This document shows, one piece after another, positions 5,300-45,673 of a stretch of DNA of 64,000 bases. The DNA lies in assembly GCA_002067865.1 (NCBI GenBank), contig MVRC01000011.1, forward strand, positions 136,573 through 200,572, read 5' to 3'. Both the position numbers and the translations under genes were made by a program. The stretch is from Methanomassiliicoccales archaeon PtaU1.Bin124. Its GTDB lineage: Archaea > Thermoplasmatota > Thermoplasmata > Methanomassiliicoccales > UBA472. Each line of letters starts with the position of its first letter. Position 1 is the first letter of the stretch. Below the pieces are notes generated by a model that was given only the letters and a program-made list of their open reading frames with translations, was not told the DNA's origin and did no database searches.

Positions 5300-6667
5300 A
5301 TGATCGTGCAGAAGGTCAGGTCCGAAGGTATCGCCCACCTATCCTATTTCATCGGCCAGGGAGCTGATGCGGCGGTCATCGACCCGCGCAGGGACATCGA
5401 TGAGTATCTGGAGCTGGCCGCAAGGAACGAGATGAACATCAAGTTGATCCTCGAGACCCATAGGAACGAGGACTATGTGGTCGGGTCGTTGGAGCTGGCC
5501 GCCGCCACCGGGGCAAAGATCCTGCACGGCGGGCAGCAGTTCTTCAAGTACGGGGGCGAGGTGAAGGACGGGCAGGAGCTGATGGTCGGGAATCTACGCA
5601 TAAAGGCGCTCCATACGCCCGGCCATACGGCCGAATCTTTCTCATACGTGCTTTACGACCCATCCTCGTCCTCCAGTCCGATCATGGTCTTCACTGGGGA
5701 CGCCCTCATGGTCAACGAAGTGGGCCGCACGGACCTGATGGGAGCCGAAGCGAAGGAGAGGGCGGCATCGGACCTCTTCGACAGCATCAACAACAAGATC
5801 CTGCCGCTCGGCCCGCAGACAATCATATGCCCGGCCCATGGGGCCGGTTCCGTCTGCGCCACTCAGATCGTGGAAAGGGAGGAAAGCACACTGGGCATCG
5901 AGGCGATGTCCAACCCGATGCTCCGCCTCAGCAGACCCGATTTCATATCAAAGAAGCTGGGGGAGAGCCTGGAGATATCTCCCATCTTCAGGTCGATGGA
6001 GGTCTGGAACCTGGAGGGCGCTAAGGTACTTGGCAGGCTGCCATCCCCTCAGCCCCTGTCGCCCAAGGAGATAAAGCATGCCATGGTCAAGGGGGCCTTC
6101 CTCCTCGACGTTCGGCAGCCATACAGCTTCGCCGGGGCGCACATCCCAGGGGCGACCAACCTGTATGTCGACTTCCTTCCTGTTTATTCTGGCTATGTAA
6201 TCACTCCCGACCGGCCCATCGCGCTCATCGCCGAAGGGCATTGTCAACTGGAACAGGCCGTGAGGTATCTGGTCCGGCAGGGATATGATTCCTTTGCTGG
6301 ATATCTTCGTGTGGGCATGGACCTATGGTCGAAGCAGGGGAACGAGATCGCCACCATGGACATGGTCACCGCCAAGGACCTTATGGCTATGATCAAAAGG
6401 GGCGACGACATCATCATCCTCGACGTTAGGGACAAGAGGGAAACGGCCAAGGGAGGGATCGACGAGGCCAAGATATTGCACCTGGGAGAGATACAGTCCA
6501 GATTGGCCGAGGTCCCGAAGAACAAGATGATCGTGACCTATTGCGGCTCGGGGTTCAGAGGAAGCTGTGCGGCCAGTCTCTTGCTTAGGAACGGATACTC
6601 CAAGGTGGCCAATCTACACGGCGGCTACGCGGCATGGCAGAGCTATCTACAGTCATCTTCAAGGTGA
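5300..6667 (+). CDS. MBL-fold metallo-hydrolase fused to two rhodanese domains
   Basis: ETHRNEDY, HTPGHT, FTGD, CPAHGAG; C-terminal rhodanese loop YCGSGFRG. Confidence 0.85.
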   Translation: MIVQKVRSEGIAHLSYFIGQGADAAVIDPRRDIDEYLELAARNEMNIKLILETHRNEDYVVGSLELAAATGAKILHGGQQFFKYGGEVKDGQELMVGNLRIKALHTPGHTAESFSYVLYDPSSSSSPIMVFTGDALMVNEVGRTDLMGAEAKERAASDLFDSINNKILPLGPQTIICPAHGAGSVCATQIVEREESTLGIEAMSNPMLRLSRPDFISKKLGESLEISPIFRSMEVWNLEGAKVLGRLPSPQPLSPKEIKHAMVKGAFLLDVRQPYSFAGAHIPGATNLYVDFLPVYSGYVITPDRPIALIAEGHCQLEQAVRYLVRQGYDSFAGYLRVGMDLWSKQGNEIATMDMVTAKDLMAMIKRGDDIIILDVRDKRETAKGGIDEAKILHLGEIQSRLAEVPKNKMIVTYCGSGFRGSCAASLLLRNGYSKVANLHGGYAAWQSYLQSSSR

Positions 6668-6669
6668 CC

Positions 6670-7053
6670 TTAGGATTTTATGAACTTGAGATAGCTGACG
6701 CCATCCACCCTTTCCAGCTCGTCGATGATGGTGTTGACCTCCCCCGCCTCTCCGCTCACTATGAGAACGTTCATGCAGCGGTCCGGTCCTACGTGGTTGT
6801 GGATGTGCGTGCGGATCATCTTCTGATGCTCGTGATAGCATTCGTCGATATGGTCGGAAGATCCCTTCTCCGTGACGACGATCAGGACTCCATCGACGTT
6901 CCCCACCATCTTCTTCCGCTCGTTCCTCTCTGCGACCAGCATGCGGAGTGCCGTTCTCACCGCCTCTGAGCGACCAGAGAAACCAAGGTCCTTCTGGACA
7001 TCATCCAGGTCCTTGATGTTCTGCTCATTGAGCGAGATGCTGATGACGGTCAT
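6670..7053 (-). CDS. nikR: NikR-family RHH/ACT metalloregulator
   Basis: RHH N-terminus (ISISL...SGRSEAVRTALR); H-x10-H-x-H-x5-C spacing matches E. coli NikR His76/His87/His89/Cys95. Confidence 0.8.
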   Translation of the reverse strand: MTVISISLNEQNIKDLDDVQKDLGFSGRSEAVRTALRMLVAERNERKKMVGNVDGVLIVVTEKGSSDHIDECYHEHQKMIRTHIHNHVGPDRCMNVLIVSGEAGEVNTIIDELERVDGVSYLKFIKS

Positions 7054-7062
7054 TGTGATCCA

Positions 7063-7100
7063 GTATGCATGTTATTAACAAATATTAAAAACATTCATAC
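7063..7100. promoter_or_regulatory. candidate NikR-type operator (11-bp inverted repeat, 16-bp spacer)
   Basis: GTATGCATGTT (7063-7073) - N16 - AACATTCATAC (7090-7100), 1 mismatch, between divergent regulator and ABC operon. Confidence 0.55.
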
Positions 7101-7151
7101 ATTCTTAATAGCAAAATTGATAATATGTAATAATATCATGATTTCGAGAAG

Positions 7152-8486
7152 ATGATTCCCCGCAAGGTCGTCACGGTCATGGTGATCGTCATACTGGTGG
7201 TCTCCAGTATCACCGCTCTATCGCTCATCGAGGTCGGCGATCCATTCGGGAGCGACCGGACCACGGTCGTCACCACCTTCTATCCGCTGTACTTCTTCAC
7301 CAGTAAGATCGCCGGGGACAGGGCCGATGTGAAGGTGCTGATCCCGGACAATGCAGAGCCTCATTCCTGGAGCGCCACCGCATCGGACCTGATCAGCGTC
7401 AGCTCGGCGGACATGTTCGTGTACAACGGGGCCGGGTTCGAACCTTGGGCCACCAGCTTCCTCGGTATTCTTCCGCAGAACGCGGTCATCGTGGACACCA
7501 GCAAGAACGTCGATCTGGTGCTTTCGGAGGAGATCGCCGAGCTGTTCGACAACGCCACTGACACCATGGCCAAAGGCCCGTTCACCGACGTCGTGGCCGT
7601 CGGGGTCGATGGAACGGCCGTCCCTTCCGTGGCTTTGGGCCAGGGATGCTATAACATCACCCTGCTCAACAACGGCACTGCCTACGAAGGCAAGTTCTCG
7701 CTCTCTGTCAATCAAATGAACGATTTCAGATTGTTCTTCGATTCCGCTGCCGAGATCACTCTAACATACGAGAATGGCACAGCGGTCGGGCTCGAGGCAA
7801 ACCTGGGGGTCATCGAAGGATATGAACAGTTCAGCGAGTCCCTGTTCCTCGAGTTGGAGCCCGGAAATGCCATCGTCACCGTGAAGAACTGCACGTCCGG
7901 TCAGCTGCATATGACAACGGTGGTTCCCGCCTCCGAGGGGGGCGAGGGAGAGCACGAGCACGGCCTCAATGACCCTCACTTCTGGCTGGACCCGGTCAGC
8001 GCCATAGTGCAGGTGCAGAGCATCCTCTCCGGCCTGATCAAGGTGGACCCGGGGAACGCAACGTACTATGGTCACAACGCGGACGACCTCATCCTCAAGC
8101 TGCAGAAATTGAATGACGATTATTTCACTGGCCTGGCCAACCGAACAAAGAACGCCATCATCACCACGCATGAAGGGTTCAACTATCTGGCCTTGAGGTA
8201 CAACTTCACCGCCTATGCGGCCATCGGCATCTCTGCCGATGCGATGCCCAGTGCCAACGACATTGCCAATCTCTGCAATCTGGCTAAGAGCCTGGACCTC
8301 CACTACGTGTTCAGCGAACCGGTATTCAGCGATACGGTCATCCGGACGATCGCGGCGGAGACCGGGACGCAGGTGCTGGTTCTGGACGGGGCCCACGGTC
8401 GAACCGGCGTCCATGCGCACATGGACTACTTTCAAATGATGTATGCTAACCTTGAAGCGTTGAAGATCGGACTGGAGGTAAGGTGA
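7152..8486 (+). CDS. znuA: Zn/Mn-type (cluster A-I) ABC transporter substrate-binding protein with large internal insertion
   Basis: N-terminal TM anchor; VVTTFYPLY, EPHSW, DPHFWLDP, THEGF, FSEP ligand motifs. Confidence 0.8.
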   Translation: MIPRKVVTVMVIVILVVSSITALSLIEVGDPFGSDRTTVVTTFYPLYFFTSKIAGDRADVKVLIPDNAEPHSWSATASDLISVSSADMFVYNGAGFEPWATSFLGILPQNAVIVDTSKNVDLVLSEEIAELFDNATDTMAKGPFTDVVAVGVDGTAVPSVALGQGCYNITLLNNGTAYEGKFSLSVNQMNDFRLFFDSAAEITLTYENGTAVGLEANLGVIEGYEQFSESLFLELEPGNAIVTVKNCTSGQLHMTTVVPASEGGEGEHEHGLNDPHFWLDPVSAIVQVQSILSGLIKVDPGNATYYGHNADDLILKLQKLNDDYFTGLANRTKNAIITTHEGFNYLALRYNFTAYAAIGISADAMPSANDIANLCNLAKSLDLHYVFSEPVFSDTVIRTIAAETGTQVLVLDGAHGRTGVHAHMDYFQMMYANLEALKIGLEVR

Positions 8487-8490
8487 TCCC

Positions 8491-9279
8491 ATGACAGAGG
8501 CAATATTCGAGCTAAAGGGGGTCGTGGCCAAATATGGCGAGCTGCGAGCCTTGGACGATGTCAGTTTCCGCATTGAGAAAGGGGATGTGGTGGGCGTCGT
8601 CGGCCCGAACGGGGGCGGGAAGACCACCCTGCTCAATGTCATGCTGGGCAACCTTCCGATCGTGGCCGGGTCCGTGAAGGTGTTCGGCCGGAACATACGC
8701 GAGTTCAAGGAATGGCATCGCATCGGCTACGTGGCACAGCACGCTATCCAGTTCGACCCCATCTTCCCCGCCACCGTGGAGGAGATAGTCTCCTTGGGAT
8801 GCCTTTCCCGCAAGCATATCGGCAAGCGCCTCAGTGCGGAGGACAAGGAAGAGGTGAAGCGCGCCCTGGAGCTGGTCGACCTTCTGCCCCAGAGGAACAG
8901 GCGCATCGGGCAGCTGTCTGGCGGACAGAAGCAACGGATCTTCATAGCCAAGGCCTTGGTCAAGAGGCCGGAGGTTCTAATACTGGACGAGGCCACGGCT
9001 GGCCTTGACATCTGCATCCAGGACCGTTTCATCGACCTCATCCGGAGGATGAAGGCGGAGAGGGACATCACCGTGGTCACCGTCTCCCACGACCTCTCCG
9101 GCGTACTGTGTCAAGCCAACAAACTGGCCGTGGTCAATAAGAAGGTGTATTGGCAGGAGATCGACGAGAAGTCGAATCCGGAGATCGCCCTAAGGCAGGC
9201 ATATGGGGAGCACTTCACCTTCGTGTTCCACAGCCACCATCATTGTGAACAACCACCCATCAAGATCAAGGAGGGCTAA
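8491..9279 (+). CDS. znuC: metal ABC transporter ATP-binding protein
   Basis: GPNGGGKTT, LSGGQKQR, LILDEAT; His-rich tail FHSHHHCE. Confidence 0.85.
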   Translation: MTEAIFELKGVVAKYGELRALDDVSFRIEKGDVVGVVGPNGGGKTTLLNVMLGNLPIVAGSVKVFGRNIREFKEWHRIGYVAQHAIQFDPIFPATVEEIVSLGCLSRKHIGKRLSAEDKEEVKRALELVDLLPQRNRRIGQLSGGQKQRIFIAKALVKRPEVLILDEATAGLDICIQDRFIDLIRRMKAERDITVVTVSHDLSGVLCQANKLAVVNKKVYWQEIDEKSNPEIALRQAYGEHFTFVFHSHHHCEQPPIKIKEG

Positions 9280-9281
9280 AG

Positions 9282-10139
9282 ATGAACGCGCTCGAGGCGT
9301 TGATCGAGATGTTCTCCTTCACGTTCGTCCAGAACGGTCTGATCGGAGGAGTGGCGGCGGCATTGATTTGCGCCATGCTCGGCGTGTTCATCGCCCTGAA
9401 GAGGGCCTCGCTCATAGGGGAGGGGCTGGCCCATCTCTCCTTCGGAGGCATAGCGGTCGGTCTGTTCGCAGGGATATACCCGCTCTACACGGCCTTGCTC
9501 CTGGCCCTCCTGGGCACCGTGGCGATATCGTACCTTCAGAAGAAGCGTCTCGTTTATTACGAGACCGCGATCGGCATCATATTCTCCTTCGGCCTGGCAT
9601 TGGGGGCCGTCCTTGCCAGCATGTCCGGGGGGTTCAACGTGGACCTGTTCTCCTATCTGTTTGGGGACATCCTCACCATCAGCTATCAGGACCTGGCCTT
9701 GGTCGTCATGCTGACGGTGGTCGTGGTGGCGTTCACCCTGCTGTTCTACAAGGAGATGATGCAGATGACGTTCGACGAACAGGGCGCAAGACTGGCGGGA
9801 GTACCGACCGGCCTTTTCGACATGGCCTTCAACATCATGACAGCCTTGGCCGTGGTCGTTTCCATCAAGATCGTCGGGTCGCTCCTCGTTTCCTCGCTGC
9901 TGATAATCCCGGCCGCCTCGGCGCTGCAGATCACGAGATCGTTCCGTACCACTGTCGTTTACAGCGCCGCCATCTCTGTGTTCTGCGTGGTGTTCGGCCT
10001 CTTTGCGTCGTTCTTCTACGACATAGCGACCGGCGGTGCGATCGTGCTGATCAACATCTTGGTCTTCGTCATCCTGGTCATCTCCCGCAAATTCTTCGTC
10101 AAGACCGTTTCCATCGAGGAGGACAAGCCTTGCGATTGA
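9282..10139 (+). CDS. znuB: metal ABC transporter permease (ABC-3 family)
   Basis: GEGLAHLSFGG, SYLFGDIL, VVSIKIVGSLLVSSLLIIPA motifs. Confidence 0.85.
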   Translation: MNALEALIEMFSFTFVQNGLIGGVAAALICAMLGVFIALKRASLIGEGLAHLSFGGIAVGLFAGIYPLYTALLLALLGTVAISYLQKKRLVYYETAIGIIFSFGLALGAVLASMSGGFNVDLFSYLFGDILTISYQDLALVVMLTVVVVAFTLLFYKEMMQMTFDEQGARLAGVPTGLFDMAFNIMTALAVVVSIKIVGSLLVSSLLIIPAASALQITRSFRTTVVYSAAISVFCVVFGLFASFFYDIATGGAIVLINILVFVILVISRKFFVKTVSIEEDKPCD

Positions 10140-11963: not shown

Positions 11964-11971
11964 ACACTAAA

Positions 11972-12007
11972 GGCCGCGCAAGCGGCCATCCAATTCTTAT
12001 TTTTTCT
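11972..12007 (+). terminator. hairpin plus T-tract ending the mtaA1 bicistron
   Basis: GGCCGC-GCAA-GCGGCC (11972-11987) followed by TTCTTATTTTTTT. Confidence 0.6.
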
Positions 12008-12137
12008 ATCGTGGACGGAGTCACGAATTTATCCATTAGGTAGCAAAAACATTCATCAATTATGATACTGGCTGTACTTATCCAACGCCTCGGCAAACCT
12101 TGATGATACCGGATTGGATTCAGGGAGGCATCATCCG

Positions 12138-13517
12138 GTGAATTTGATGAGAGAGACCATTGGATCCACGCGCAGCCTGTGCCCGGAGTGCCTGAAGACC
12201 ATACCGGCAACGAAGGTGGCTGAGAACGACGCCATCTATCTGGAGAAGGAATGCCCCGAGCACGGCAAGTTCCGCACCATCATCTGGCGCGGGGTCCAGG
12301 ATTATAAGGACCTGACCAGGTACGCCTGCGAGCTGTCCAAGCCTCTAAAGGTGGCCATCCAGGAGAAGGACCGCTGCCCCGAGGTGTGCGGGCTCTGCCC
12401 CGATCATAACCAGCATACCTGCCTTGTCGTCCTGGAGATCACCAACCAGTGCAATCTCAAGTGCCCCATCTGCTTCGCCTCCGCCAATGAGAAGTACAAG
12501 TTCCATCCCAGCATGGACGAGATCAAGAAGATGTACCAGCACATGCTGGATTACGTCAGCCATCCCATCTGTGTGCAAATCTCCGGAGGTGAGCCGACGA
12601 TCCGGGACGACCTTCCGGACATCGTCAGGCTGGGCAAGAGCATGGGCATCGACCATATCGAGGTGAACACGAACGGAGTGAGGTTCGGCCAGGACCTTGA
12701 GTTCCTGCAGAAGTGCAAGGACGCCGGTGTCGATTCGCTGTACTTCTCCTTCGATGGCATGACCTCCGATGTGTACATGGCGACCTGCGGCAAGGACCTC
12801 CTGCAATCGAAGCTGAACGCCGTGGAGAACTGTGCCAAGGTCGGCCTGGGCGTCACCCTCGTCTGTGTCGTCTCACCGAACATCAACATCAACCAAGTGG
12901 GCGATGTCGTGCGGTACGCCAAGAGCAAGGTGCCTACCGTGAAGGGCATCCACTTCCAGCCCATCGCCTATTTCGGCCGCTATCCAATCACGCCGAGGGA
13001 CCTTGACCGCGTCACCATCCCCGATCTGCTGAAGGCGATAGAAGAGCAGACAAAAGGGGAGCTCAGGGCGGACAACTTCATTCCCACATCCTGCAGTAAT
13101 GTGCACTGCGATGCCAAGTCCATGTCGGTCATCTTGGAGGATGGTTCCATGTTCCCGCTGACCTCCCGTGCGTTGGGGCCGCCAAGGGAGACCAAGGCCA
13201 TCGCCACCAAGACCCGGAAGGAGATATCCGACCTCTGGCGCTACATCGAGGAGTCATTGACGCTGGAGGAGGACGCAGCCGGAGAGAACACCTGGGGCTC
13301 ATTCATCGAAAGGGCCAAGACGATGTACCTCACGGTCAGCACTATGGCCTTCCAGGACGCCTGGAACGTGGAGACGGAGAGGCTGTGCAACTGCTGCATC
13401 CATACCATCACTCCGGACGGCAAGCTCATCCCGTTCTGTCTGTTCAACATCAACGGGGCGAACGGTAAGACCCTTTACCGGCACGAGATGTGGTCCAAGT
13501 TCGCCAAGAAGGAATGA
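12138..13517 (+). CDS. radical SAM protein, MJ0619/Tes superfamily, TrsS-like branch
   Basis: N-terminal CPEC...CPEHG, CPEVCGLCPDH, RS motif CNLKCPIC, SGGEPT, HFQPIAYFGRYP, AFQDAWN...CCIH...PFC; start GTG 12138 or ATG 12147. Confidence 0.85.
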   Translation: MNLMRETIGSTRSLCPECLKTIPATKVAENDAIYLEKECPEHGKFRTIIWRGVQDYKDLTRYACELSKPLKVAIQEKDRCPEVCGLCPDHNQHTCLVVLEITNQCNLKCPICFASANEKYKFHPSMDEIKKMYQHMLDYVSHPICVQISGGEPTIRDDLPDIVRLGKSMGIDHIEVNTNGVRFGQDLEFLQKCKDAGVDSLYFSFDGMTSDVYMATCGKDLLQSKLNAVENCAKVGLGVTLVCVVSPNININQVGDVVRYAKSKVPTVKGIHFQPIAYFGRYPITPRDLDRVTIPDLLKAIEEQTKGELRADNFIPTSCSNVHCDAKSMSVILEDGSMFPLTSRALGPPRETKAIATKTRKEISDLWRYIEESLTLEEDAAGENTWGSFIERAKTMYLTVSTMAFQDAWNVETERLCNCCIHTITPDGKLIPFCLFNINGANGKTLYRHEMWSKFAKKE

Positions 13518-13518
13518 G

Positions 13519-13860
13519 ATGGCATTGATGGAAAAGGGCCACGAGTGCCCGGAATGCAGGGAGGAGGAGCCGATCGCTCCGATCCTGTTCTTGGGATTGG
13601 GGGGCATGCTGGCGTTCTTCTCCTTTGCATTCTGGATCGTCACGTTCGTGGCCGAGCCGGGCATGTTACCCCTGGCCGCCGGCATGACCGTCGTCGGCGG
13701 GGGAATGATGGCCTATGGCTGGTATTTGATCAGCCAGAGGAAAAAGCGGAAGCTCAAGGCGCATCAAGCGGCGGTGGAAAAGGCAAAATGTGATTATTGC
13801 GGCGGGCAGAACGACCCTGGCACCACCAAGTGCCAGTTCTGCGGCGCACCACTTTTCTGA
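13519..13860 (+). CDS. small membrane protein with CPEC, two TM helices and C-terminal double zinc ribbon
   Basis: starts 1 nt after radical SAM stop; CDYC...CQFC. Confidence 0.7.
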   Translation: MALMEKGHECPECREEEPIAPILFLGLGGMLAFFSFAFWIVTFVAEPGMLPLAAGMTVVGGGMMAYGWYLISQRKKRKLKAHQAAVEKAKCDYCGGQNDPGTTKCQFCGAPLF

Positions 13861-13861
13861 T

Positions 13862-14167
13862 TCAACGGTTCTTGGTCTTACCGACCGAGTTACGGTAGTT
13901 GGCCAGGATATCGTTCATGTAGCTAGCTACGAACGCCTCCTGCTCCTTCGTCTTGACGTTAAACTCCTGCAGCGGGAACTCCGTGTCGCAATAGACGCAG
14001 CGGGCCAAGCGGCAGTTGGTGGTGGACTTCGGACATCCGACGCACGCGATCGCCCTTGACTGGAACAGGCTGAACTCCTTGCCACACCTGGGACACTTGA
14101 TCCTCTTGGTGGTCTTCATCAGCTGCGGTGTAACACCAGCCCTTTGAAGTTCCGGGGTCAGGGGCAT
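13862..14167 (-). CDS. small Cys-rich (zinc-finger-like) hypothetical protein
   Basis: CPRC, CVGC, C...CVYC. Confidence 0.7.
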   Translation of the reverse strand: MPLTPELQRAGVTPQLMKTTKRIKCPRCGKEFSLFQSRAIACVGCPKSTTNCRLARCVYCDTEFPLQEFNVKTKEQEAFVASYMNDILANYRNSVGKTKNR

Positions 14168-14228
14168 CTAAAAACCTCTGGAATCAGGGAAAGCGCCCCG
14201 GTTATAAATAATGTGGCTGGAACGCATG

Positions 14229-14999
14229 CTAACTCTTCTCCAGCTCGCTCCGGGTGGGCTCGAACTCCGGCGGGAACAAAGCAGGCCAGCGCAAGAACGG
14301 CCTGAACGGATAGGGAGAGAACGCGTCGGTGACCTTGATCCCCTCCACTATCTGCGACAGACGGCCGATGGGTATCACCATGACCAGCTCGTCGTCCTGC
14401 ACCAGTCCCCACATCCGGTCCCCGGCGCAAGGGACCTCCAAGATCGCACTGCCGGTATCGATGGCCCGCGCCACGCTCTGGCAGACCGCCGCCTGGCCGG
14501 TTATGGGGTTGTCTATCACCTCTCCCTTGGCATAGCTGAGGCCCAGCAGCACCTTGAGCGCTTGACCGGGCGTAACGTAGATGATGACGACATCGGGATC
14601 GAAATCAGCGAGGTCCAGCGCTGCCGTCCTTACCCCTCCGTTCAGCACGTCGGGGCGAAGCGCGGCCACATGGGTCTGCAATATTCTGGCCGCCTCCTCG
14701 TCCTTGGTGAACGAGCGGTTCAGATCACCGTCCCTCAGCCTGGCCGGTTCCCTCACCATGCCCAGGCAGACCTCGGCCCAGAGGCATTTGTTCCCCTCCG
14801 TCGACGAGGCCACCACGCCCTCGTCCCTCTGATATCTGGACAGGGCGATCATCTGGCACAGGCAGGTGGTGCGCAGCACCTTCACCTTATCGACCGCCAG
14901 CTCCTCCGCCGGCAAAAGGCGCAATGCCACGGGATCGGTCCTCAGTCTAAGTTCCTGGACAAGGTCCCGGTGAAGCCCAGCAAGCTCGCTGCGGTCCAT
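14229..14999 (-). CDS. DUF169 family protein
   Basis: PVAL, CQMI, C-LGM, PDVVII, GQAAVCQ, PCAGDR pattern; start trimmed to ATG 14999. Confidence 0.75.
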   Translation of the reverse strand: MDRSELAGLHRDLVQELRLRTDPVALRLLPAEELAVDKVKVLRTTCLCQMIALSRYQRDEGVVASSTEGNKCLWAEVCLGMVREPARLRDGDLNRSFTKDEEAARILQTHVAALRPDVLNGGVRTAALDLADFDPDVVIIYVTPGQALKVLLGLSYAKGEVIDNPITGQAAVCQSVARAIDTGSAILEVPCAGDRMWGLVQDDELVMVIPIGRLSQIVEGIKVTDAFSPYPFRPFLRWPALFPPEFEPTRSELEKS

Positions 15000-15080
15000 G
15001 CTCCGGGATGCCCGTGGCCGGTAGATAACGATGCCTGTCGGACAGCAATGGTTTTTTCTCTCCTTCTCCATCAGGTAGCG

Positions 15081-16535
15081 TTGAAACCGATCGAGCGGAT
15101 CAAACTGATGTTGGCCAGGACGCAGCTGGTCTCCAACAAGATCGCGGACGATGAGGAACATCCACTCCAGGCCCAGATCGAGATGAAGGTCAGGCTGGAG
15201 CTGAAGCACGACAAGGACTTCCGCCGCGCCCTGGGCCGTTCTCGCCTCTCCGATGTCACCCGCCAGGACATGGTGGAGTTCCATCTTCACAAGTTTCGCA
15301 AGCAGATGAGATACGTCAATGCCAACTCGACCTTCTACCGCGATCGGTTCAAGGCGCTCGGCCTCAGGCCGGAGGACATCGTCACCTACGAGGACCTGCT
15401 CAAGGTGCCTGTCACGGAACCATCAGACCTGGCCGAGGACCCCTATGGCTTCCTCTGCGTCTCGCAGACCGAGGTCATGCGGGCCTTCACCACCACTGGC
15501 ACCTCGGGGCAGAGGAAGAGGCTGTTCTACACCCAGAGGGACGTGCTGAACATCGTCGATTCCATTGCCTCTGCCATCCGGAACGTGGGCATGACCGGGA
15601 ACGATACGCTCCACATCATGTTCCCAGCGGTCAGCGCGTGGGACCCCAGCCTCATGCTGGACAGCGCCTGCAAGGTAGCTGGTCTGCGCTCCAAGGTCTG
15701 CAGCGACATCGACGTGGAGAAACAGCTCCAGGCGATGAGGGACTCCCAGGCGAAGGTCATCATCGGGCTCACCTCCTTCATCTACAGGATCACCGTCCTG
15801 GCCCGGGACAAGCATGACCTGCGCGCCTTCGGCGTCAAGGCCATCATCTGCTCCAGCGAGCCTTTGAGCGAGGCGGTACGGCACGAGATCGAGGCGGCGT
15901 GGGGTTGCAAGGCGCTGACCCAGTACGGCATGACCGAGATGGGCCTGGCCACCGCCATCGAATGCTTCGCCCAGGACGGGATACACCTGGACGAGGGCAA
16001 CTATCTCTGTGAGTGCATCGACCCGGCCACCGGTAAACATCAGCCGGACCGCGTCGAGGGCGAGCTGATATGGACCAGTTTGAACATGCAGGGCAGCCCG
16101 CTGCTCCGCTACCGTTCCTACGATCTGTCATGTTACATCTCCCCGCCCTGCGGATGCGGATACACCACGGTCGGCAAGATGGGCAAGCCCAAGGGAAGGA
16201 TCAACGGGGAGACGAAGATAGGTCTGGGGGACAAGATATGGCCCTCAATGTTCGACGAGGCGGTCCTGGGCGTGTCAGGCGTGCTGGGCTACCAGGTCAT
16301 CATCGACAAGGCGGGCTTCAGGGACCATCTCACCTTCAACGTGGAATACCATGGCGACGCCAGCGGCGTTCCGGCCGCGATAAAGGACAAGCTCATGGCC
16401 CTGGACGAGATCAAGATCGGGCTGGACAGCGACCTCATCGACCCGTTGGTGGTGGAGATCCTGCCGGAGCGGAAGGATTTCGTGCTGAAGCAGAAGACCA
16501 TCGTCGACAACCGCCCCCTGTTCGATAAGAAGTGA
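15081..16535 (+). CDS. phenylacetate-CoA ligase (PaaK)/DVU_1553-like adenylate-forming enzyme
   Basis: TTTGTSG P-loop, QYGMTEMG, PLLRYRS; start likely TTG 15081 after CAGGT (or ATG 15048). Confidence 0.75.
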   Translation: MKPIERIKLMLARTQLVSNKIADDEEHPLQAQIEMKVRLELKHDKDFRRALGRSRLSDVTRQDMVEFHLHKFRKQMRYVNANSTFYRDRFKALGLRPEDIVTYEDLLKVPVTEPSDLAEDPYGFLCVSQTEVMRAFTTTGTSGQRKRLFYTQRDVLNIVDSIASAIRNVGMTGNDTLHIMFPAVSAWDPSLMLDSACKVAGLRSKVCSDIDVEKQLQAMRDSQAKVIIGLTSFIYRITVLARDKHDLRAFGVKAIICSSEPLSEAVRHEIEAAWGCKALTQYGMTEMGLATAIECFAQDGIHLDEGNYLCECIDPATGKHQPDRVEGELIWTSLNMQGSPLLRYRSYDLSCYISPPCGCGYTTVGKMGKPKGRINGETKIGLGDKIWPSMFDEAVLGVSGVLGYQVIIDKAGFRDHLTFNVEYHGDASGVPAAIKDKLMALDEIKIGLDSDLIDPLVVEILPERKDFVLKQKTIVDNRPLFDKK

Positions 16536-17193: not shown

Positions 17194-17925
17194 CTAGCCC
17201 TTTATCGCCTTGATGATGGCCGCCAGGGAGCTCAGGTCATCGTTCTCGGCGATGGTGCCCGTGACGATGATGTTCGCTCCGGCCCTCTTGACCGCCAATG
17301 CCTGCTCTGGCTTCCTGATCCCACCACCGATGATCAACGGGACGGATATGGTCTTCTTGACCGCCGCGATCATCTCGCTAGAGACGGGCTCAGGCGCGCC
17401 CGAACCGGCCTCCAGGTAGACCAATTTCATGCCCATGTACTCGGCGGCCAACGCATATGCGCTGGCCAACTTCAGATCGTCCCTGGGGATGGGGTCCGCC
17501 TGTCCAACCTCTCCGACCTTCATTCCCGGAGCGACGATGATGTAGCCCATGGCGATCGGCTCGAGGTTGATCTTCTTGATTATGAGCGATCCGGCCACCT
17601 GCTCTCCGATGACCATCTTCACGTTGCGGCTGTTGAGCATGCTCATGAAGTAGATGGCATCGCAATAAGGGCTGATGGCGTGTGCCCCGGAAGGGAAATA
17701 AATGACCGGCAGTGAGCACATCTTCTTGATGGCCAGCACGGTCTCGTCCAGGTTCTTCTGGGTGACATCGGTGCTTCCGCCCACCATGATCGCATCGCTG
17801 CCGAAGGATTGAGCCTGCTTGGCGATCCTGCCTGCCTCCTCTGGGTCCTGCTTTGCAGGGTCCAGCAGGGTCATGTGCAGCACGCCTTTCGGAATCCTCT
17901 CATCGATGTATTCCTTGACCTTCAT
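17194..17925 (-). CDS. geranylgeranylglyceryl phosphate synthase (GGGPS/PcrB family)
   Basis: HMTLLDPAK, DAIMVGGST, YLEAGSGA, IGGGIR. Confidence 0.9.
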   Translation of the reverse strand: MKVKEYIDERIPKGVLHMTLLDPAKQDPEEAGRIAKQAQSFGSDAIMVGGSTDVTQKNLDETVLAIKKMCSLPVIYFPSGAHAISPYCDAIYFMSMLNSRNVKMVIGEQVAGSLIIKKINLEPIAMGYIIVAPGMKVGEVGQADPIPRDDLKLASAYALAAEYMGMKLVYLEAGSGAPEPVSSEMIAAVKKTISVPLIIGGGIRKPEQALAVKRAGANIIVTGTIAENDDLSSLAAIIKAIKG

Positions 17926-18737
17926 TGTAATCCTCCCAACAGGAATGCTATCAGAGCCACGAGCATGCCATACTTAGCGAACTTCTGGCCAAGCCTGGGG
18001 CTTCGGAATTGAACAACGGAGGCATATATAAAGATTCCATCGGCCACAATGACCGGCACCAGATACAGCGGGCCGAAGGTGCCAGTGAGATATGGGACCG
18101 GGGACAACGATACCGCCCCGATGATGGCGACGGCACCTACGACCCCTGCCCATTTCGTGCCGATTCGTTTCGGAAGGGTGTAACGGTCGAAGTCCGCCTC
18201 CATGTCCTCGATGTCCTTTATGACCTCCCTCCCCAGTGTCGCCAATCCCGCCAGCAGGGCAAGGATGTATGTCCTGGACAGCGCGTCCACGATCGTCCCG
18301 CCCAGCAGGAACAGCATGGCGGTAAGAGCGGCGATCGTTAGGTTGCCTGAGAATCCTCTCTTCTTCGTGCTCAGTTCGTAAAGGAGCATGAGGGCGACGG
18401 CCGTGACCACGACCACGATGGACTGCCAGTTGAGGAAGAGCGAAAGTGCGACAGAGACGATGAAGCAGACGGCGGACACCTGAAGCACCGTCTCGGGCCG
18501 CATCATTCCTGAAGGAATGGGCCGCTCAGGGTGCCCCTGCTTGTCGACCTCCCTGTCGATGTAATCATTAAGAGAGTTCCCTGCTGCGATGAAGAAGAAC
18601 ACGACCCCGGCGCTGAATATGACCGCCACCGGTCTGTCGATCAGATGGTATCCGGCAGCTACCCACAGGCCCATGATCAGTCCCACGATGCCCATGATGC
18701 AGTTGCCTATGCGGAACAGCTGCAGGTATTTGTTCAC
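17922..18737 (-). CDS. digeranylgeranylglyceryl phosphate synthase (UbiA family)
   Basis: GNSLNDYIDREVDK..HPERPIPSG and REVIKDIEDMEAD Asp-rich motifs; overlaps GGGPS. Confidence 0.9.
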   Translation of the reverse strand: MNKYLQLFRIGNCIMGIVGLIMGLWVAAGYHLIDRPVAVIFSAGVVFFFIAAGNSLNDYIDREVDKQGHPERPIPSGMMRPETVLQVSAVCFIVSVALSLFLNWQSIVVVVTAVALMLLYELSTKKRGFSGNLTIAALTAMLFLLGGTIVDALSRTYILALLAGLATLGREVIKDIEDMEADFDRYTLPKRIGTKWAGVVGAVAIIGAVSLSPVPYLTGTFGPLYLVPVIVADGIFIYASVVQFRSPRLGQKFAKYGMLVALIAFLLGGLQ

Positions 18738-44533: not shown

Positions 44534-45673
44534 ATGAGCCTTTGTCCGGACATGCCAAATGCCGATGCCATATTCCCATCCGTCAACGAAAAGTGGCACA
44601 AGCACGCGGAAAAGCGGTTCGCTAGCCCATTCACCGGCCAGAACTATGACAGGATCGATGTCGATCCGATGATGCTGTCGCACGCGGCGCTCATCACTGG
44701 CTACACCATCAACGATTTCTACACCAAGCCTGCGCTGGGAGCGAGGTGCGTGGCGAACGCATCGGAGATGTACGATCTGCTGCCCGTAACACACTGGTAC
44801 TTCTCGCTGCCTTGGGTGGCGGAACTGGGAGCAGAGATCGAGTTCAAGCCATACCTTCCGCCGGTAGTGAAGGAACCGACCATCAAGGACATCGAGCAGG
44901 TAGACAAACTTGAGGTTCCGGACCTGAACGAGATGGAGAAGGGATGGACCGGGAGCAGGATGATCGAAGCGCAGGACTATGTGCAGCAGCACCTGCCCAA
45001 GATGTTCATTCCAATGACCTACACCTCCGACCTCACCGGAGGCGGGGCGCAGCTATGTGGCATCGCCGATTTCATCATGTGGTCCATGACCGAGAGGGAT
45101 GCGGCGGAGAAATTGGTGGCGAAGTACACCGAAGTGGCGATCAACGGGGCGGAGCTGATGGCCAACCGCTACGGCATGGCGTTCATCTCCACCGGTTCCG
45201 TTCTGGCCAACAACGACATCTTCTCCGACCAGGATGTGAACGACCTGTCGATCAAGTATCTGAAGAGGTTCGTGGACCAGGCCATGAGAAAGGGAGCTGG
45301 GCCGCAGCTGCTGTACCACCTGTGCGGTAACCATGAGACCGATTACAAGCTGTTCCGCGACCAGGTCCCGTTCTCCATGATGACCATCTTCCACATCGGC
45401 TACAAGGGCCGCGAGGTCTTCCCATCCGACATACTGATGAAGGAGTTCGGCGACAGGGCTACCATCATGGGCTCGGTCGACACGAAGATCATGATCCTGC
45501 CGAACCCGAAGAAGGTCTACGAGCAGGCCAAGGAGCAGCTCATCCGAGGCAGGGATAGCAAGTGCGGTTACATATTGGGGACCGCCTGCGAGCTGCCTCC
45601 AGACGCCTATCCGGCCAACGTGCATGCGCTGGTCCAGGCGGCCCGGGACTACGGCACCTACGGGACATGGTGA
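44534..45673 (+). CDS. mtaA: methylcobamide:CoM methyltransferase MtaA/MtbA family, paralog 2
   Basis: YHLCGNHETDYK, GTACELPP; clearly similar to 10379-11497 over the full length. Confidence 0.72.
   Translation: MSLCPDMPNADAIFPSVNEKWHKHAEKRFASPFTGQNYDRIDVDPMMLSHAALITGYTINDFYTKPALGARCVANASEMYDLLPVTHWYFSLPWVAELGAEIEFKPYLPPVVKEPTIKDIEQVDKLEVPDLNEMEKGWTGSRMIEAQDYVQQHLPKMFIPMTYTSDLTGGGAQLCGIADFIMWSMTERDAAEKLVAKYTEVAINGAELMANRYGMAFISTGSVLANNDIFSDQDVNDLSIKYLKRFVDQAMRKGAGPQLLYHLCGNHETDYKLFRDQVPFSMMTIFHIGYKGREVFPSDILMKEFGDRATIMGSVDTKIMILPNPKKVYEQAKEQLIRGRDSKCGYILGTACELPPDAYPANVHALVQAARDYGTYGTW

Follow-up and report, generated by a model that had tools for sequence, protein, structure and literature searches.

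A TrsS-family radical SAM enzyme of Methanomassiliicoccales, probably the core of a gene cassette shared with strictly anaerobic bacteria

Background

The closest characterised relatives of the enzyme described here are the tetraether synthases (Tes, also termed GDGT-MAS), radical SAM (S-adenosylmethionine) proteins represented by MJ0619 and MA_1486, whose homologues are used to infer which organisms produce tetraether lipids. Zeng et al. (PMC8941075) reported 456 bacterial Tes homologues and suggested a role for them in the synthesis of brGDGTs (branched glycerol dialkyl glycerol tetraethers); according to Sahonero-Canavesi et al. (PMC13159169), Tes homologues are absent from bacterial producers of membrane-spanning lipids. 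A 2026 review (PMC13188914) includes another family, TrsS, among the selenoprotein families and credits it to Haft & Tolstoy (2025, mSystems 10:e0141724). Here we describe a TrsS-family gene of Methanomassiliicoccales archaeon PtaU1.Bin124 (assembly GCA_002067865.1), located within a stretch of 64,000 nucleotides (nt) of contig MVRC01000011.1 (positions 136,573 to 200,572), hereafter called the window. A first-pass annotation of this DNA had noted the metal sites of a tetraether synthase and considered a lipid or other hydrophobic substrate plausible. We estimate a probability of roughly 0.6 that TrsS is instead the core of a conserved cassette, common to Methanomassiliicoccales and strictly anaerobic bacteria, and that it is not a tetraether synthase.

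Family assignment and phylogeny

The open reading frame (ORF) of 467 amino acids (aa) at 12114..13517 (+) in the ORF list represents a real gene. Its start is likely GTG 12138, with a GGAGG motif at 12124-12128, 9 nt upstream; ATG 12147 is an alternative start codon. The residue numbers given below (window numbering) count from the ATG. The encoded protein contains the Pfam domains HMPTM N-terminal zinc ribbon and Radical_SAM. It matched the profile NF045646, “radical SAM (seleno)protein TrsS”, over positions 2-441 of 441, with 533.5 bits and E = 3.3e-160 (curated cut-off, 490 bits), while the Tes model NF045702 gave 392.3 bits in two pieces, below its cut-off of 450 bits.

Profile searches of the whole assembly (2.2 Mb, 18 contigs) identified the window gene (533.2 bits at this level) as the sole TrsS, and a separate, canonical Tes was found on contig 16 (673.8-673.9 bits on NF045702). 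Because the genome has this second gene, the possibility left by the first-pass annotation, that the window gene is simply the genome's only Tes, is ruled out. Among 121 genomes of the order, nearly all carry Tes and 67 also carry a TrsS above the cut-off; some further TrsS copies are truncated by contig ends, and none contains an in-frame stop codon. Several archaeal orthologues are already named TrsS by NCBI. As judged from sequence, the window gene is a member of this catalogued family, a paralogue of Tes, and not the tetraether synthase of its genome.

A maximum-likelihood tree of 115 sequences (86 TrsS and 29 Tes) separated the two families with SH-aLRT values of 100 on both sides. The window protein groups with bacterial TrsS (support 100), a placement that the first-pass annotation itself had listed among the results that would speak against its reading. 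The archaeal TrsS proteins are monophyletic (support 100) and are carried on a stem branch of 0.78. In the free tree they were nested, with weak support (88), inside bacterial TrsS. A tree constrained to bacterial TrsS monophyly scored even better, and the approximately unbiased (AU) test does not reject that monophyly (p = 0.88). No direction of transfer is therefore claimed, and the archaeal clade is placed either as sister to the bacterial clade or within it.

A sample of 100 genomes of the phylum yielded true TrsS from Methanomassiliicoccales alone; more distant Tes/TrsS-like paralogues occur in two further lineages. One of these genes, from another lineage of Thermoplasmatota (genome G132, L141:7674-9949), scores 359 and 341 bits, below both cut-offs, and directly adjoins a class-I methyltransferase gene of the DVU_1556/ArsM-like type. 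It is an example of a radical SAM gene paired with a methyltransferase gene outside the true TrsS family.

Structure and active-site residues

Every motif that had been quoted as the metal-site layout of MJ0619/GDGT-MAS was found in the window protein: C12-x2-C15-x20-C36-x2-H39 (CPEC..CPEH), C77-x3-C81-x2-C84-x2-H87 (CPEVCGLCPDH), C102-x3-C106-x2-C109 and C416C417IH..PFC431. The C-terminal half carries HFQPIAYFGRYP and AFQDAWN, and its description as TrsS-type is borne out. With E = 3e-160 for NF045646 and E = 4e-94 for GDGT-MAS (PDB 7TOL), the closest solved structure by sequence, the set of motifs is far above chance. The gene contains no in-frame TGA, i.e. no selenocysteine, which is an optional trait in the TrsS family.

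Structure prediction, which had been proposed as a check, placed the protein in the GDGT-MAS fold. The AlphaFold2 model, built on 61 TrsS sequences, reached a mean predicted local distance difference test score (pLDDT) of 87.6 and a predicted template modelling score (pTM) of 0.89. Its TM-scores were 0.83 and 0.77 to 7TOL and 7TOM, respectively, and the next best structure was MoaA (0.44).

A residue comparison was then made across 41 TrsS proteins from archaea, 45 from bacteria and 29 Tes proteins, with the cofactors described as in Lloyd et al. (PMC9433317). The columns of the metal ligands are kept in all three groups. In the window protein they correspond to the rubredoxin-like site (C12, C15, C36, H39), the [4Fe-4S]N cluster (C77, C81, C84, H87), the radical-SAM cluster (C102, C106, C109) and the [4Fe-4S]C cluster (C321, C416, C431 and the labile Met400, equivalent to Met439 of MJ0619).

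In contrast, TrsS carries other residues at several positions that do not vary in Tes: His for Asn at position 269, Asn for His at 318, Ala or Pro for His at 401, and Trp for Tyr at 406. Position 420 corresponds to Tyr459 of MJ0619, which Lloyd et al. (Extended Data, PMC9433317) state to be completely conserved among 1000 Tes homologues. Our Tes sequences all have Tyr here (29/29); the archaeal TrsS have Thr (41/41) and the bacterial ones Val, Thr or Ile. Conserved cysteines have been added in TrsS: Cys92 (86/86 sequences), Cys417 (usually present) and Cys316, which is located five residues before a cluster ligand and occurs in 41/41 archaeal and 33/45 bacterial proteins. In one bacterial locus, from a metagenome-assembled genome of Acidobacteriota (L076), the Cys316 column contains an in-frame TGA (…IPSG*EEPHCSFSG…), and this locus therefore has a selenocysteine site at that position.

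TrsS is also shorter. It lacks about 19 residues just before Cys321 (21 residues, compared to 40 in Tes), a segment that is hydrophobic in Tes, and about 20 more between Cys321 and Met400 (78-83 compared to 100); its tail is likewise shorter than that of Tes. By these comparisons, TrsS retains the four-cofactor machinery of Tes, combined with a remodelled and shortened C-terminal substrate domain.

These data bear on the idea that the window gene encodes a redundant or condition-specific Tes isozyme, which would make glycerol dialkyl glycerol tetraether (GDGT) or macrocyclic archaeol. TrsS does share the architecture and cofactor sites of GDGT-MAS, and Zeng et al. (PMC8941075) found 22 methanogen genomes with two Tes homologues. 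However, it is the other copy, on contig 16, that exceeds the Tes cut-off; the completely conserved Tyr459 is Thr in the window protein; and TrsS falls into a separate clade together with bacteria. Moreover, the second homologue of M. acetivorans, MA_1114 (not a TrsS by the NF045646 cut-off), made no GDGT in the same study (PMC8941075). A second tetraether synthase is thus extremely improbable.

Conservation and co-inheritance of the cassette

A neighbourhood scan of species-representative genomes yielded 80 TrsS loci: 34 archaeal, with 66-90% identity to the window TrsS, and 46 bacterial (Chloroflexota, Desulfobacterota, Bacillota and Acidobacteriota), with 40-45% identity. Twelve loci from the search of the 121 genomes brought the number of archaeal loci counted to 46. 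The archaeal order is as follows: URO-D/MtaA-like gene, 151-aa adaptor gene, trsS, 101-aa zinc-ribbon gene, DUF169 gene and PaaK-type ligase gene, and then pdxT and the genes for geranylgeranylglyceryl phosphate synthase (GGGPS) and digeranylgeranylglyceryl phosphate synthase (DGGGPS). The coordinates of these features in the window and the frequency of the cassette genes are summarised in Table 1.

Table 1. Features of the trsS region in the window and occurrence of the genes in the archaeal loci.
Feature	Coordinates	Strand	Basis or remark	Archaeal loci
URO-D superfamily protein, MtaA-like putative zinc methyltransferase, 372 aa	10379..11497	+	PF01208, E = 1e-24	40/46
Adaptor protein, 151 aa	11508..11963	+	N-terminal half similar to the C-terminal domain of the bacterial dicluster oxidoreductase; C-terminal half a DVU_1557-type ribbon	41/46
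GC hairpin (GGCCGCGCAAGCGGCC) followed by a T-run	11971..12010	+	sequence reading	
TrsS-family radical SAM enzyme (rubredoxin-like site, [4Fe-4S]N, radical-SAM cluster, [4Fe-4S]C)	12138..13517	+	NF045646, AlphaFold2, tree	46/46
Two-transmembrane (two-TM) protein with C-terminal zinc ribbon, 113 aa	13519..13860	+	no Pfam match above cut-off	5/46
Zinc-ribbon protein, 101 aa, convergent with TrsS	13862..14167	-	7 invariant Cys	44/46
DUF169 protein, 256 aa	14229..14999	-	PF02596, E = 4e-37	40/46
PaaK-like adenylate-forming ligase	15048..16535	+	start at ATG 15048 or ATG 15108	29/46 (many contigs short)
GGGPS	17194-17925	-	TIGR01769, 271 bits	
DGGGPS	17922-18737	-	NF009521, 222 bits	

Eight further loci, from five families of the order, showed the same core order. 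DUF169 and PdxT are missing from those of the Methanomethylophilaceae type, and one locus (L136) yielded neither DUF169 nor GGGPS.

The 121 genomes were also searched with the URO-D-like protein, the ligase and TrsS, and the counts were read by eye from the resulting tables. All three genes are present in about 71 genomes and none in about 43, so that approximately 114 of the 121 are concordant; the discordant genomes (at most 7) are mostly fragmented assemblies. Joint absences concern most genera of the Methanomethylophilaceae type as well as scattered genomes of other families, a pattern that implies several independent joint losses.

The bacterial trsS cluster

Clustering of the bacterial neighbours and their naming by NCBIfam placed bacterial trsS within the DVU_1551-1559 cluster. 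This includes genes for a MoeA-like protein, a molybdopterin aldehyde oxidoreductase (Mo-AOR), an NAD(P)/dicluster/CCG oxidoreductase (NF045663), the DVU_1557 zinc-ribbon protein, the DVU_1556 methyltransferase, the DVU_1555 C-GCAxxG protein, TrsS and the DVU_1553 ligase, together with XdhC, a MocA-HD nucleotidyltransferase and a CobC-like phosphatase. The DVU_1553 ligase gene adjoins trsS in all 46 bacterial loci. Literature searches on DVU1553-1559 and on DUF169 gave nothing useful on function.

When Desulforamulus proteins were used as tblastn queries against the whole window genome, no gene for Mo-AOR, XdhC, the C-GCAxxG protein or DVU_1557 was detected. The dicluster oxidoreductase and DVU_1557 are represented solely by their tail domains, which are joined in the 151-aa protein. 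The missing Mo-AOR neighbourhood is a trait of the gene context and not of the TrsS protein. TrsS, the ligase and the adaptor tail are constant in the cassettes of both domains and are accompanied by some type of methyltransferase, and the archaeal version, as judged from its gene content, works without a molybdenum enzyme.

The bacterial gene context argues against a lipid role of TrsS in bacteria. It might instead point to maturation of a cofactor, with TrsS modifying a molybdopterin or pterin or maturing the neighbouring aldehyde oxidoreductase: bacterial trsS lies among Mo-AOR, XdhC, MocA-like and MoeA-like genes, and the Pfam domain name HMPTM stems from an old annotation of MJ0619 as a pterin methylase. 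That assignment was not reproducible and has been replaced by GDGT-MAS (PMC9433317), and in the window genome TrsS and the ligase occur without a Mo-AOR, XdhC or MoeA-like partner. We therefore regard cofactor maturation as very unlikely.

A proposal of “soft-nucleophile methylation” via ArsM-like Cys pairs was discarded, as the bacterial DVU_1556 protein has only one distinctive conserved Cys. The N-terminal extension observed at locus L142 contains no recognisable domain.

The membrane zinc-ribbon gene

The gene following trsS had been described as encoding a two-TM, double-zinc-ribbon protein that starts 1 nt downstream. This spacing was confirmed: the trsS stop codon (TGA 13515-13517) is followed by a single G and by ATG 13519. 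The 113-aa protein indeed has two hydrophobic segments and a complete C-terminal CxxC..CxxC ribbon; since its N-terminal part contains only a single HxCxxC knuckle, the term “double zinc ribbon” is slightly generous.

We considered whether TrsS needs this protein as an obligate membrane anchor. The two genes may well be translationally coupled, as suggested by the 1-nt spacing and by an AAGGA motif within the 3′ end of trsS, and both termini of the protein are predicted (from the sequence, by the positive-inside rule) to be cytoplasmic. Its distribution speaks strongly against such a role. The gene occurs in only five archaeal loci, where TrsS is 82-90% identical to that of the window while the 113-aa protein, evolving much faster, shares only 41-50% identity; about 40 of the 46 archaeal loci lack it, as do all 46 bacterial ones. 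In about 35 other archaeal loci the stop codons of trsS and of the convergent 101-aa gene are separated by -4 to approximately 130 nt (mostly < 65), and there is therefore no room for it. A search of 5.8 billion proteins retrieved only 3 further homologues. A conserved membrane partner, as the earlier description implied, is thus not seen beyond loci whose TrsS is at least 82% identical, and an obligate anchor is highly improbable. The gene is a real one, as its conservation in a genus-level group shows, but it is a young, lineage-restricted insertion outside the conserved cassette.

Proximity to ether-lipid genes

The annotated presence of GGGPS and DGGGPS genes about 4 kb away was correct: they are located 3.7-5.2 kb downstream of trsS. 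In the eight extra loci with true TrsS (L133-L140), the order ligase-[PdxT]-GGGPS is found in seven, five of which include DGGGPS, and the synteny holds across most of the sampled families of the order. We treat both as context genes in conserved synteny with the cassette and as no more than candidate members of it.

This arrangement raises the possibility that the cassette modifies ether lipids, e.g. by C-methylation of the glycerol backbone to give butanetriol and pentanetriol tetraethers (BDGTs and PDGTs). TrsS would remove a hydrogen from the glycerol backbone (or from some other carbon of the lipid), generating the substrate radical, and a methyl group carried on a corrinoid would come from the MtaA-like enzyme. 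Such tailoring, if true, would explain the conserved position beside GGGPS and DGGGPS, and would assign biosynthetic genes to a class of biomarker lipids. A lipid C-H activating enzyme is a homologue of TrsS with the same fold, the genes co-inherited with trsS include one of a methyltransferase family, and M. luminyensis makes BDGT and PDGT by enzymatic backbone methylation, as cited in PMC10673518; in the literature searched, no enzyme has been assigned to BDGT backbone methylation.

On the other hand, orthologues with 40-45% identity occur in bacterial Mo-AOR clusters, in organisms without archaeal lipids, and TrsS has lost the hydrophobic Tes segment and Tes-invariant pocket residues. An unrelated gene, pdxT, separates the cassette from GGGPS, which, like DGGGPS, is encoded on the opposite strand; no role in backbone methylation suggests itself for the ligase or DUF169; and BDGTs are also made by Bathyarchaeia (PMC13003381). 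The lipid substrate suggested in the first-pass annotation is weakened because TrsS clusters with its bacterial counterparts, Tes segments have been lost and the membrane partner is not conserved, and we consider lipid tailoring unlikely.

Proposed function of TrsS

The loss of Tes-invariant residues, the deletions, the occurrence of bacterial orthologues in non-lipid contexts and the coexistence with Tes all argue against a tetraether role. We favour the view, at the probability given above, that TrsS is the core of the conserved cassette. By analogy, it would most likely catalyse a radical reaction on a ligase-activated, non-tetraether substrate. The presence of the ligase in the cassette suggests that this substrate is probably a carboxylate, which would first be activated or tethered by the ligase.

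Electrons would enter through the rubredoxin-like site and [4Fe-4S]N, and SAM would be cleaved reductively on the C102/C106/C109 cluster. The resulting 5′-deoxyadenosyl radical could then take a hydrogen from an unactivated sp3 carbon, and the substrate radical would be handled at [4Fe-4S]C (C321, C416, C431 and the labile Met400), possibly with the assistance of the TrsS-specific residues Cys316 (selenocysteine in the single bacterial locus mentioned above), Cys417 and Cys92. A methyl-transfer step may precede or follow the radical step. The steps are proposed by analogy with GDGT-MAS, and the activation by the ligase and the role of methylation are likewise presumed.

Several observations weigh against this proposal. 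The literature searched yielded no functional study of, or biochemical datum on, any TrsS. The conserved synteny with GGGPS and DGGGPS, together with the homology to a lipid enzyme, leaves some room for a lipid substrate. The archaeal ligase, at 244 bits, falls below the cut-off of NF045666 (300 bits), and the long archaeal stem in the tree would be compatible with TrsS having changed its function once the archaeal and bacterial lineages had parted. In 12 bacterial proteins, Ala, Gly or Ser takes the place of Cys316, which is therefore not universally essential. Finally, TrsS is missing altogether from one single-contig genome (G105) in which the URO-D-like gene and the ligase persist, 1.36 kb apart (G105:C1:1833653-1837503); this genome is the one clear exception to co-inheritance.

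The second Tes-like copy of Methanomassiliicoccales is TrsS, a distinct enzyme that has partners of its own, and does not belong in counts of tetraether synthases. The archaeal cassette represents a natural minimal version of the bacterial TrsS system from which the molybdenum enzyme has been dropped, and hence a small gene set that separates the core of the pathway from its accessories.

Other proteins of the cassette and adjacent genes

Among solved structures, the nearest to the URO-D-like protein is MtaA (4AY7), and its H255-x-C257...C345 residues are invariant in the URO-D-like family of the cassette. This H-x-C...C motif occupies what we take to be the position of the MtaA zinc ligands. 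The protein was rejected as a housekeeping MtaA: it scores 37.5 bits on TIGR01463, compared to 284-311 bits for three canonical MtaA copies encoded elsewhere in the genome. A paralogue with 58% identity, found in many genomes of the order, is encoded at 44570-45670 (+) of the window.

The N-terminal half of the adaptor matches the last 75 positions (684-758) of the NF045663 profile (E = 1.6e-10), and its C-terminal half aligns with the DVU_1557 family (hhalign, 98%, E = 2.7e-13). The protein is accordingly described here as a fusion of a DUF4258-like domain and a DVU_1557-type ribbon, homologous to both bacterial parts. The four ribbon cysteines are kept in 13 of 19 adaptor orthologues; all four have been lost in the lineage of the window and, independently, in L039, L042 and L044. 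In contrast, the tail, VEEYLATKTLAAAEGLFEKK[KR]A, comprising the last ~22 residues, is nearly invariant in all orthologues. It is thus the tail, and not the metal site, that appears to be under selection, which makes a protein-borne substrate conceivable. Downstream of the adaptor gene, the GC hairpin looks like a terminator that would split the upstream gene pair from the trsS transcription unit.

The invariant cysteines of the 101-aa ribbon protein are C25, C28, C42, C45, C52, C57 and C60, and its gene is present in 8/8 further loci from other families. The NCBIfam profile search gave no family assignment for this protein. A relationship with DVU_1557 was examined and is not claimed, because the profile comparison reached a probability of only 40% and the PDB matches were generic zinc ribbons. 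The DUF169 protein has four Cys that are invariant across 29 orthologues. Its AlphaFold2 model has a pLDDT of 91.8, and neither a structural relative (best Foldseek E = 0.38, TM < 0.3) nor a sequence match was found in the PDB.

The ligase gene lies 1.5 kb downstream of trsS. The encoded protein has NF045666 (DVU_1553) as its best NCBIfam match, aligns with PaaK (2Y4O, E = 2e-46) and is the genome's best match to the bacterial DVU_1553 ligase (193 bits, compared to at most 113 for others). A 774-aa ORF at 14211-16535 (+) was dismissed as an artefact, being an open frame antisense to the DUF169 gene that continues into the ligase gene.

Upstream of the cassette, the region 5300-10139 of the window encodes an MBL-fold/rhodanese protein, a NikR/CopG-like regulator and a ZnuABC-like metal ABC transporter. 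About 14-20 of the 46 archaeal loci show this arrangement as well.

Comparison with known systems

Tes/GDGT-MAS (MJ0619, MA_1486; 7TOL/7TOM) and the window TrsS share approximately 33% identity. They have in common the four-domain fold, the rubredoxin-like CX2CX20CX2H site, [4Fe-4S]N with three Cys and one His, the radical-SAM CX3CX2C motif, and the [4Fe-4S]C ligands with the labile Met. TrsS differs in failing the Tes model, in lacking Tyr459, His401, His318 and about 40 residues of the C-terminal domain, and in having extra conserved Cys; it coexists with a true Tes, has bacterial orthologues and occupies another gene context. The phyla reported by Zeng et al. (2022) for bacterial “Tes homologs”, the proposed brGDGT synthases, overlap those in which we found TrsS (Acidobacteriota, Desulfobacterota, Chloroflexota and Bacillota), and on the basis of this overlap many of these proteins are likely to be TrsS.

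Bacterial TrsS belongs to the same clade as the window protein and shows the same signature residues (Cys92, Cys/Sec316, His269 and Trp406), although the window protein has Cys and not selenocysteine (Sec) at position 316, unlike the selenoprotein form. The bacterial and archaeal systems share the ligase partner and a homologue of the DVU_1557/dicluster-tail adaptor, the parts of which are separate proteins in bacteria but fused into one in archaea. Neither MocA-HD nor a full dicluster oxidoreductase is encoded anywhere in the window genome, and the class-I methyltransferase of the DVU_1556 type found in bacteria has its counterpart in the MtaA-like zinc enzyme of Methanomassiliicoccales. The archaeal version, in turn, adds DUF169 and the 7-Cys ribbon protein, and adjoins GGGPS and DGGGPS.

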